Under the pieces are notes generated by a model, which saw only the letters and a list, made by a program, of their open reading frames with translations, ran no database searches and was not told where the DNA came from. Positions 14,986-16,096 of a DNA stretch of 64,000 bases are shown here, one piece after another. How positions within the stretch are numbered: position 1 is the stretch's first letter; every line of letters starts with the position of its first letter. This DNA comes from Bacilli bacterium (GTDB lineage Bacteria; Bacillota_I; Bacilli_A; ML615J-28; CAG-698), in NCBI GenBank assembly GCA_045598145.1, contig JAZLLM010000085.1:7303-71302 (forward strand), given 5' to 3'. The position numbers and the translations under genes were made by a program.

Positions 14986-15213
14986 TAGGATTATTTGGTG
15001 TTTTTGGTTTGTGTTTGTTGCTGTTTCGTCTTAATTTTCAAAGACTCATCAGGGGAACTTGGTGATTCCCGACAGTGTAATTTAGTTATAAACTGTCCGT
15101 TTTGTTGAATCAACATTAAGTTGGACAGTTGTGATGGAAAGGGGGTGGGTGGGACTATCTCCCACTAAATCAATCAGTTACAACAAGACAATCACAAATA
15201 GCAACTAATCTAT

Positions 15214-15413
15214 TTTCATTATAAGATTTAAATCTATCAGATGAAAAATAGACTTCTTTCATTATAAGATTGAATTCAATCAATCAGATGAAAGAAACTA
15301 TTTTCGTCACAAGTGATGAAGATATTTCTTTCATTATAAGATTTAAATCTATCAAGAAAGAATCTAGTCCCGTCATAAGAGGTGAAGAATCTAGTCCCGT
15401 CACGGGAGGTAAA
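15214..15413. repeat. iteron-like direct repeats: 3 copies of TTTCATTATAAGATT(T/G)AAAT...ATCA(G)ATGAAA plus a 27-nt tandem duplication
   Basis: Core copies at 15214-15246, 15257-15292 and 15329-15360. Tandem GAATCTAGTCCCGTCA at 15360-15375 and 15387-15402 (27-nt units, 22/27 identical). Confidence 0.6.
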
Positions 15414-15414
15414 A

Positions 15415-15453
15415 CCCCTTTCGGGGTGAAGACGAGGATTACTCCTCGTCTTC
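15415..15453. terminator. two adjacent perfect hairpins (CCCCTTTCGGGG; GAAGACGAGG-ATTACT-CCTCGTCTTC) at the 3' end of the GC-rich minus-strand ORF; likely bidirectional terminator
   Basis: 4-bp GC stem plus a 10-bp stem. The stop codon of ORF 15439..16011 lies in the loop of the second hairpin. Confidence 0.45.
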
Positions 15454-15933
15454 GTCTTCGCTTGGCGTGAAGCGCTCGCTCGCTTCATAGCCAGCGTCAG
15501 TGAGCTGGCACATGAAGCGGTCGGACTTTTCGTTCTCGATATTGCCATTATATTTTTCGTTAATGGCGTATCGTTGAACGAAGAAGTCTTCGCTCAAGTC
15601 AACCAATTTGACGAACTTGTTATGCGGTATAACCGTATAACCATTTTCGTCTGGTTGACGTTCGAGGAAACCGAGCGAGTCGTCAAGTTTGCCGACAAGC
15701 AAGGTTTCGCCTGCTTCGTTTTTGTACTTCACAAGTGTGCTGTAGTGAAGTACGACAGCGAAGCAGGTCTTCTCGAACTGCGCGGGTAAGTCGAATTCGC
15801 CAGCCGTAACGTATCGGCTGACGAATTCGGCTTTCACGCCAATGAAGATTTCACGGCCATTACGGCCAAGTGTAATATCTTCCATTGGTGTAGAGATTTT
15901 GAGTACGCGAAAAATCTCGCGCAGACCACGCAT
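15439..15933 (-). CDS. hypothetical protein encoded in a GC-rich (~50%) island
   Basis: The track ORF is 15439..16011, but its first 26 codons are read from a G/C-tract inverted repeat. An internal Met (MRGLREIF) at 15933 is a more plausible start. Acidic C-terminus SEDEDEE. Strong composition shift versus the ~30% GC flanks. Confidence 0.35.
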   Translation of the reverse strand: MRGLREIFRVLKISTPMEDITLGRNGREIFIGVKAEFVSRYVTAGEFDLPAQFEKTCFAVVLHYSTLVKYKNEAGETLLVGKLDDSLGFLERQPDENGYTVIPHNKFVKLVDLSEDFFVQRYAINEKYNGNIENEKSDRFMCQLTDAGYEASERFTPSEDEDEE

Positions 15934-16096
15934 AGATAATGCGTGCAAGAGGACACGGGGCGTATGCCCAACGTGGCCAAAGGGGAGAGGGAGGTTGAGG
16001 GATTGACCCACCCACTCCCCCTATCAAAAAATAAATTTAAAAAAAATAAAAAATAAAAAAAAAATTAAACCTCTTGCATTTTAATAAATCTATACG

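Follow-up and report, generated by a model that had tools for sequence, protein, structure and literature searches.

Phage morons are autonomous gene units that have their own promoter and terminator, lie between core genes and often deviate in composition. Other small phage loci are known for their structure or repeats: the promoters of the coliphage N4 virion RNA polymerase are three short, sequence-conserved hairpins upstream of genes, and iteron-type replication origins may lie within or beside a gene, as the lambda origin does in gene O and P1 oriL in repL. Obelisks and other viroid-like RNAs are highly structured, about 1 kb long, carry one open reading frame (ORF) of about 200 aa and sometimes a type III hammerhead ribozyme. 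Here we describe a GC-rich cassette at positions 15141–16025 of a 64,000-nt stretch of DNA (the window) from an AT-rich crAss-like phage, which resembles each of these systems in part. No viruses are more abundant in the human gut than the crAss-like phages and, to our knowledge, it is largely unknown how their transcription and replication start after DNA entry.

Perreault et al. (2011, PMC3088659) described hammerhead ribozymes in prophages that flank single, non-constant genes, including the anti-restriction gene ardA, and proposed that they cut long transcripts into mRNAs of gene length. We tentatively favour, at somewhat less than even confidence, the reading that 15141–16025 is a self-contained, moron-like first gene of a leftward operon, with a stable mRNA that is clamped by hairpins and insulated by a ribozyme. 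The cassette is a built-in feature of the phage lineage and not a recent jumping element.

An earlier note on this DNA had described an island of about 50% GC, bounded by a G/C-tract inverted repeat and containing a repeat array and two perfect hairpins, and all of these were found again in our analysis. In sliding 300-nt windows the GC content was 0.43–0.51 across 15250–16000, compared with 0.294 for the whole window. The arms of the inverted repeat (15141–15164 and 15996–16019) are 24 nt long and 79% complementary. Their core, GGGGGTGGGTGGG, was found with two or fewer mismatches only at 15141–15153 on the plus strand and 16007–16019 on the minus strand in 64 kb (chance expectation, 0.05; two matches were reached in 0 of 100 shuffles). 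Both ends also fold on themselves, and the terminal inverted repeat can therefore equally be described as two G/C-rich stem-loops. The repeat array consists of three 42-nt units (15199–15240, 15242–15283 and 15314–15355) and three 27-nt units (15292–15318, 15358–15384 and 15385–15411; consensus AAGAATCTAGTCCCGTCAyrrGAGGTG). The 42-nt units share an exact 14-nt core, TTCATTATAAGATT, which occurs exactly nowhere else, and each contains a perfect palindrome of 12–14 nt (AGATTTAAATCT in two units, GATTGAATTCAATC in one) plus TTATAATGAAAGAA; the array could be a set of operator, promoter or iteron sites. In the hairpin pair the 5-bp stem is followed by UUUU on the minus strand, so that the pair resembles an intrinsic terminator of the cassette ORF. 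No target-site duplication was found, in agreement with the earlier note, and the flanks TGATGGAAAG and TATCAAAAAA have no direct repeat at the borders. The island is thus a discrete, compositionally foreign-looking and highly structured unit in the strand-switch region.

Of the ORFs of at least 120 aa, every one up to position 16011 lies on the minus strand except for an overlapping frame of 132 aa (10233–10631), and every one from 16413 on lies on the plus strand except for one (43059–43544). The strand switch is located between 16011 and 16413, and the cassette therefore lies exactly in the divergent region, where the cumulative GC skew also turns.

The most unusual property of the cassette is its folding. 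As an RNA of 890 nt it has a predicted energy of −383.6 kcal/mol, compared with −244.5 ± 8.6 kcal/mol for shuffled sequences (z = −16.1). When the whole window was scanned with 300-nt windows, the four most extreme z-scores (−17.1, −9.9, −9.7 and −7.8) all fell within 15151–15900, whereas the best score outside the cassette was −6.8 and the window-wide median −1.07; the cassette is the most structured stretch of the 64-kb window. In the predicted fold, about 15 local hairpins follow one another, and their stems contain 7–24 pairs. About 68% of the ORF nucleotides are paired in predicted near-perfect local hairpins, and 62% of the in-ORF pairs are codon-aligned, a codon standing opposite its reverse-complement codon, which agrees with the enrichment of GAA/TTC, GAC/GTC and GGC/GCC. 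The GC content at third codon positions (GC3) of the ORF is 0.64 in stems and 0.48 in loops, and the loops are still well above the value of about 0.11 typical of the phage; given as ranges, the values are 0.57–0.77 in stems and 0.35–0.48 in predicted loops. A consistent G-quadruplex was rejected, as the pattern of G-runs is not kept in the relative L132 described below. The runner-up among structured stretches of the window, 9450–10650 (z from −5 to −6.8 in 300-nt windows), is AT-rich and has short ORFs on both strands.

The cassette ORF is open on the minus strand over 15439–16011, which would give 190 aa from a GTG in the right repeat or 165 aa from an ATG at 15933–15931. The earlier note had placed the annotated N-terminus inside the right-hand repeat, but the only copy found in the databases is 148 aa long and begins at ATG 15885, and the annotated start is therefore not within the repeat. 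The product contains 30 D+E against 16 K+R and ends in an EDEDEE tail. Several features indicate coding: the GC contents of codon positions 1, 2 and 3 are 0.56, 0.31 and 0.58, GC has a significant 3-periodicity (p = 8e-7), and a stop-free run as long as that of the ORF was seen in only 0.25% of dinucleotide shuffles (P = 0.0025). Codon use is opposite to that of the phage, with TTC in 11 of 11 cases and GAC in 10 of 11, compared with 13–14% in other phage genes.

The earlier note had seen no recognisable motifs in the ORF, and neither Pfam nor PHROGs gave a family for it. An exact search with the 148-aa protein led to no recorded contig. A search of 5.8 billion protein clusters returned only the protein itself, and an exhaustive HMMER search of 1.84 billion representatives returned itself and two repeat-protein artefacts, with no homologue. 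Searches by tblastn of the INPHARED phages and the PLSDB plasmids found no match. On the DNA level, megablast and blastn of the cassette against INPHARED were also negative, and megablast of 14600–16500 retrieved only a 35-nt hammerhead core outside the cassette. In exact-pattern scans of IMG/VR, JGI metagenomes and GTDB genomes there was no true match to the repeat unit, to the arm of the inverted repeat or to the conserved leader of the rightward unit; a pattern match in contig L135 was a chance occurrence inside a gene. Some specific identities were considered and rejected. Neither a tRNA nor a known RNA family was found within the island, and no HUH or DDE transposase motif was seen in the ORF by eye. 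A ToxIN-like type III toxin–antitoxin system was rejected because the order on the ORF strand (ORF, terminator, repeats) is wrong for it, and the ORF has no Pfam or PHROG match to the ToxN/AbiQ families.

To place the cassette among related phages we used Logan contigs, which were found through the neighbouring exonuclease (16413–17645; best identity 53% at the amino acid level). In L124 (Logan contig SRR21150946_3415) the exonuclease is 53% identical to that of the window, and in L132 and L133 it is 47% identical. L133 is a near-identical copy of L132 with an identical cassette, so that a comparison of these two with each other is uninformative. Reading leftward from the exonuclease, L124 has a structured leader with a TAnnTTTG promoter, an A-tract, a right-hand G/C element, a GC-rich minus-strand ORF, a hairpin with a T-run terminator, further hairpins and a G-rich left-end stem-loop. 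Its ORF encodes 122 aa, has 50–53% GC and an A-rich leader, and the cassette folds with z = −16.9. The same layout is present in L132/L133 with a 100-aa ORF, and the L132 cassette has z = −5.8, so that its excess of structure is clear but smaller. The motif TTGAGGnATTGACCC of the right-hand element is kept in L124, where the element and its flank are 77% identical overall, and the A-rich tract is conserved in kind in L124 and L132. A terminator-like hairpin with a T-run follows the stop codon in all three phages, and the leaders upstream of the ATG in L124 and L132 are A-rich and unstructured.

The L124 ORF is a homologue of the L132 ORF (30% identity, E 5e-7), and each has about 50% GC within an AT-rich genome. 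The window ORF has no relation to this pair, also when a family profile of the two was used, and this profile retrieved only its own members from a large protein database. An AlphaFold model of the pair had a mean confidence (pLDDT) of 44.5, too poor for fold searches. GC 3-periodicity is present here as well (p = 0.003 and 0.013), and the excess of the stop-free run is marginal (P = 0.046 in L124 and 0.02 in L132). The repeat array at 15199–15411 is not conserved in L124 or L132, and in these two phages the cassette ends are not clear inverse copies of each other, although each folds on itself. Among the relatives examined we found neither an empty site nor a phage without the cassette; farther exonuclease relatives (L126–L128, L134, L138 and L139) have another gene order, and a search of IMG/VR with both neighbouring genes gave no close relatives. 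The unit is thus a conserved slot, whose cargo has diverged or been replaced. The presence of the same slot in relatives, together with GC-richness that persists through deep divergence, speaks against a single recent insertion and favours selection on composition or structure. The earlier note had named as a refutation that related phages carry the region with ordinary composition and no repeat boundaries; the region is indeed present in relatives, but its composition and G/C boundaries are equally unusual there, and the test thus comes out only half-way. We also noticed that short-read contigs of related phages (L129, L130, L131, L136 and L137) repeatedly break off 210–550 nt before the exonuclease gene on its upstream side, at or close to poly-G/C tracts. 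These repeated ends suggest a coverage drop-out, strain heterogeneity or a physical genome end.

Downstream of the cassette we identified a predicted type III hammerhead ribozyme (RF00008 match with 42.9 bits, E 1e-7, over the full model 1–54). The core CUGAUGA...GAAAC and the GUC site are intact, the model alignment showing CUGAUGAG, CGAAAC and GUC. Stem I has 6 bp and stem II 5 bp, and both form in the minimum free energy (MFE) fold. Cleavage of the minus-strand RNA is predicted to follow C15071, at the bond between 15071 and 15070, and would leave the ribozyme body attached to the downstream RNA, with the next ORF (14985) starting 33 nt further on. Stem I of phage cr53_1 (GUAUCUGUAGAUAC) differs from that of the window (GGGAAUCACCAAGUUCCC) and yet pairs, while the core is identical. 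A 30-nt segment of core and stem II, CUGAUGAGUCUUUGAAAAUUAAGACGAAAC, is identical in cr53_1, cr131_1 (L002) and cr272_1 (Suoliviridae) and in at least 120 IMG/VR contigs, and the contigs carrying it vary greatly in GC content and size. Of 113 distinct contexts of this 30-mer, 96 form stem I in the type I topology; the type III permutation is found in the window and in the cr53_1 group. A second, upstream ribozyme that would enable circularisation was rejected, as none was found in the Rfam search. L133 has a weak hammerhead-like match downstream of its cassette.

In other crAss-like lineages (L112, L082, L029 and L002/L122) the same hammerhead core lies downstream of a GC-rich orphan ORF. These ORFs are preceded by a poly-G/C tract (ACCCCCCCCCCCCACC in L112, for example) and followed by a terminator hairpin, and none of them has a Pfam or PHROG family. 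Their folding is not extreme: z is near 0 in L112 and L029, and L002 and L082 have only a moderate excess of structure. Hyper-structure as a general trait of hammerhead-adjacent GC-rich ORFs was rejected on these scores. Two hammerhead copies about 390 nt apart and in the same orientation occur in L020, L030, L048 and L099, and such pairs could release a small RNA. In cr53_1 (L001, NC_055889.1) about 2.2 kb around the hammerhead (3030–5270) are without an annotated gene in RefSeq.

Taken together in the minus-strand direction, the order of elements is a G/C-rich 5′ stem-loop, a structured leader, the acidic 148-aa orphan ORF, a putative double-hairpin intrinsic terminator, the repeat array, a second G/C stem-loop, a hairpin, the predicted type III hammerhead and the next gene. 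The unit occupies a fixed slot at the head of the leftward block, beside an A-rich divergent control region. The high GC content and the hairpins are probably maintained by selection, since the ORFs of L124 and L132 are only 30% identical and yet both have about 50% GC. The likeliest effect of both would be to provide a fast-evolving early protein with an mRNA whose ends are clamped and whose resistance to nucleases is unusual. Our best guess for this protein is a role in host takeover or anti-defence, because it is small, acidic, orphan and first in the operon. Read-through transcripts would be cut by the hammerhead at 15071/15070; the cassette RNA would then end in a 2′,3′-cyclic phosphate and the downstream operon mRNA would begin with a 5′-OH and the folded ribozyme, and with such differing ends the fates of the two RNAs would be uncoupled. 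In read-through RNA, long-range pairing of the G-tract with the C-tract may also close the whole unit into a panhandle.

The comparison with known systems gives a mixed picture. Like a moron, the cassette is a single small ORF of deviant GC content with its own putative terminator, situated between core modules, and its cargo varies among relatives. Unlike morons, its slot and the flanking G/C hairpins are conserved across relatives, no promoter was identified, its GC-richness persists at 30% homologue identity and its coding region is saturated with hairpins. The moron proposed in the earlier note is thus kept in modified form, as a gene unit that would be autonomous, with a terminator to itself and a cargo that can be exchanged, but not as a recent insertion, since the slot is conserved. 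The prophage hammerhead cassettes (PMC3088659; ardA, Agrobacterium) also have a hammerhead beside a single, non-constant small gene in a phage polycistron; here one ribozyme was found, on the downstream side, and it is a predicted type III form of a core that is mostly type I. The cassette shares with obelisks and viroid-like RNAs its length of about 0.9 kb, its extreme z-score of folding and its single orphan ORF, and a predicted type III hammerhead lies nearby. It differs from them in lying in a DNA phage contig, in a fold that strings local hairpins together and closes them with one terminal stem rather than forming a rod, and in having one ribozyme, which belongs to a phage-wide family present also in phages without the cassette.

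Several observations weigh against our reading of an insulated, hairpin-clamped mRNA. The slot is known from only three independent examples (the window, L124 and L132/L133). A minus-strand promoter for the cassette was looked for and none was identified, ATG 15885 lies at the base of an 11-bp stem, and an A-rich leader of the kind seen in L124 and L132 is absent in the window. The RF00008 score of the hammerhead is below the gathering score of 48.5, so that the ribozyme is missing from a scan at the gathering threshold; its stem III is short (4 bp), and L124 gave no hammerhead match. An efficient terminator would keep both the left G/C element and the ribozyme off the main transcript. The function proposed for the protein is a guess, and the AlphaFold model of the window ORF (pLDDT 35) was unusable. 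We know of no system or precedent that accounts for such a density of hairpins in a coding region. The stems are nearly pure Watson–Crick, with G:U making up 5–8% of pairs, and folding is about equally strong on both strands; the structure could therefore act in DNA and not in RNA, and sequence alone does not decide between the two.

A role in DNA, which would fit the structured origin region suggested in the earlier note, is the basis of one alternative, which we consider unlikely, though it is the main rival. It says that the GC-rich palindromes, the A-tract, the G-tracts and the repeats form a replication origin or priming site and that the ORF is secondary; in a variant, hairpins or cruciforms extruding from supercoiled AT-rich DNA would give a phage polymerase a single-stranded template. 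The near-perfect Watson–Crick stems, the lack of strand asymmetry in G:U and the equally extreme z-scores of both strands fit this well, as do the direct repeats with palindromic cores next to an A-rich tract and the location where the cumulative GC skew turns, although this turn is confounded with gene orientation. For prototypic crAssphage, predictions place the origins at the strand switch (PMC10983915). In the crAss-like phage phi14:2, the virion RNA polymerase is efficient on single-stranded but poor on double-stranded DNA, and its early promoters have no common motif (bioRxiv 10.1101/2020.03.07.982082). With iteron origins the cassette has in common direct repeats with dyad symmetry, an adjacent A/T-rich tract, a position at the strand switch and skew turn, and an overlap with coding sequence; it differs in that the repeats, which are located outside the ORF, show no conservation in L124/L132, no initiator gene was recognised with Pfam or PHROGs, and the ORF hairpins are not repeats of each other. 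The likeness to the N4 promoters and the phi14:2 polymerase, which comes from the literature only, consists of GC-rich DNA hairpins within an early region that is AT-rich, in a group of phages that inject an RNA polymerase of their own, but the cassette has about 15 unrelated hairpins, mostly within the ORF. That the hairpins are all unlike in sequence and lie inside a frame with strong coding periodicity speaks against the DNA alternative, and no DFDxD polymerase motif was found in the three large window ORFs that were checked.

In another alternative the composition is simply foreign, each GC-rich ORF being a recently imported classical moron from a GC-richer donor that has not yet ameliorated, with incidental hairpins. 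A GC3 of 0.58 against about 0.11 in the phage, elevated in loops too, would be expected of such an import. The window cargo is not homologous to that of L124/L132, and the GC-rich orphan ORFs of other crAss-like lineages, with a G/C tract before and a hammerhead after them, show no extreme structure. We regard this as quite improbable, since no donor or homologue was found among the clusters, representatives, phages and plasmids searched, the L124/L132 ORFs have stayed at about 50% GC, and z-scores of −16 to −17 in two unrelated cargos are unlike those of ordinary genes, the ORFs of L112 and L029 being near 0. A further alternative takes the region for a large non-coding RNA with structure, or for one from which several hairpin RNAs are made, and would account for the extreme z-scores and for ORFs that are orphan and have no confident fold; the open frame would be a by-product, because GC-rich sequence is poor in stop codons. 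Shuffles of like composition indeed give stop-free runs of about 100 codons, the excess in L124 and L132 is marginal, and phi14:2 produces abundant long non-coding RNAs, which come from intergenic regions near one genome end (bioRxiv 10.1101/2020.03.07.982082). The chance of this explanation is small in our view, given the significant 3-periodicity of all three ORFs, the alignment of the L124 and L132 products as proteins, their A-rich leaders with ATG, the terminator directly after the stop in all three phages and the lack of an Rfam family. A mobile element, either MITE-like (miniature inverted-repeat transposable element) or IS-like (insertion sequence) with terminal inverted repeats, or a homing cassette that targets this site, is the last alternative; of these the earlier note had suggested a MITE-like insertion. 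The 24-nt imperfect repeat is unique in the window, the contrast is sharp, and the cargo varies between conserved flanks. We nevertheless find this very improbable: the same unit occupies the same slot in L124 and L132/L133, there is no second copy in the window, no target-site duplication and no transposase or endonuclease family for the ORF in Pfam or PHROGs, the end sequences and repeat units are absent from IMG/VR, the cassette DNA from INPHARED and the ORF from INPHARED and PLSDB (tblastn), and the L124/L132 ends, each self-folding, are not clear inverse copies.

A bolder proposal, to which we give as little credence as to the recent import, is that the AT-rich genomes of crAss-like phages contain a class of GC-rich elements, saturated with hairpins, that are selected for nucleic-acid structure and not for protein, and of which the cassette would be the first described example. 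In one version, palindromes beside the A-tract would extrude from supercoiled DNA and offer a single-stranded entry for the virion-delivered RNA polymerase or the replisome at the first leftward gene; in the other, the RNA would be a nuclease-proof, ribozyme-trimmed scaffold. In both the ORF would ride along or would have arisen de novo in stop-poor, GC-rich sequence. The locus brings together, in 1.4 kb at the divergence point of the genome, a conserved slot for a fast-evolving first gene, a hammerhead of a very widespread phage family and a new covarying RNA, and the hairpin density inside the coding region, seen in two unrelated cargos, is unprecedented. If the hairpins act in RNA, the cassette would be a natural design of a hyper-stable, ribozyme-insulated mRNA; if they act in DNA, it is maybe the missing template-opening signal for crAss polymerases that prefer single-stranded DNA, or a replication origin. 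The features of the locus and its surroundings are collected in Table 1.

Table 1. Features of the cassette, the divergent region and neighbouring genes, in window coordinates
Feature	Position	Strand	Description
Type III hammerhead ribozyme (predicted)	15018–15078	minus	Rfam RF00008; 63 nt beyond the left repeat
Hairpin	15092–15129	minus	7–8 bp stem ACTGTCC/GGACAGT between left G/C element and ribozyme; in MFE fold
Left G/C-tract element	15141–15165		Long-range inverted-repeat arm and local 6-bp stem-loop 15149–15165, GTGGGA-CTATC-TCCCAC
Repeat array	15199–15411		42-nt units interleaved with 27-nt units
Two perfect hairpins	15414–15453	minus	11-bp stem 15428–15453, overlapping the stop codon; 5-bp stem 15414–15427
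GC-rich orphan ORF	15439–15885	minus	148 aa from ATG 15885; acidic product
Structured 5′ leader	15886–16022	minus	Four hairpins, the first being the right G/C-tract element
Right G/C-tract element			Local 13-pair hairpin 15980–16022; inverted-repeat arm 15996–16019
A-rich (plus strand) tract	16026–16069		44 nt; separates the divergent units
Rightward unit	16097–16400	plus	−7 box, then structured leader or non-coding RNA of about 250–290 nt; exonuclease ATG 16413
Terminase	22040–24322		PHROG family
Portal	24406–26853		PHROG family
Major head protein	29634–31085		PHROG family

On the other side of the A-rich tract, the rightward unit begins with a −7 box of the Bacteroidetes type, TATATTTG (16097–16104), which is the sole match to TAnnTTTG in 14900–16450. 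The leader region is 77% identical to that of L124, whereas the adjacent exonuclease is only 53% identical. We aligned the leader of the window (16097–16400, plus strand) with those of L124 (2055–2375) and L132 (1835–2125). RNAalifold predicted 65 pairs from the three sequences, 23 of them with compensatory double changes, and a comparison of the leader with Rfam gave no family. The covariation points to a new structured RNA at about 16150–16400 on the plus strand.

The wider window is that of a crAss-like phage, as its terminase, portal and head protein families indicate, with 29.4% GC over the 64,000 nt, and 171 nt of its terminase gene are 81% identical to phage cr108_1. The leftward block contains at 4147–6482 (minus strand) an NAD-salvage pair, consisting of a nicotinamide phosphoribosyltransferase (505 aa, PHROG E 3e-191) and a ribose-phosphate pyrophosphokinase. 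In the rightward block, an HNH endonuclease ORF (19060–19665, plus strand; PHROG E 3.5e-50) lies in a second island of raised GC at 19008–19665, with a GC content of 0.40 and a GC3 of 0.38. A marginal tRNA-like Rfam match (29.6 bits vs 29) at 19008–19084 overlaps the start of this ORF, and ARAGORN made no call there. The HNH island is likely a homing-endonuclease insertion.

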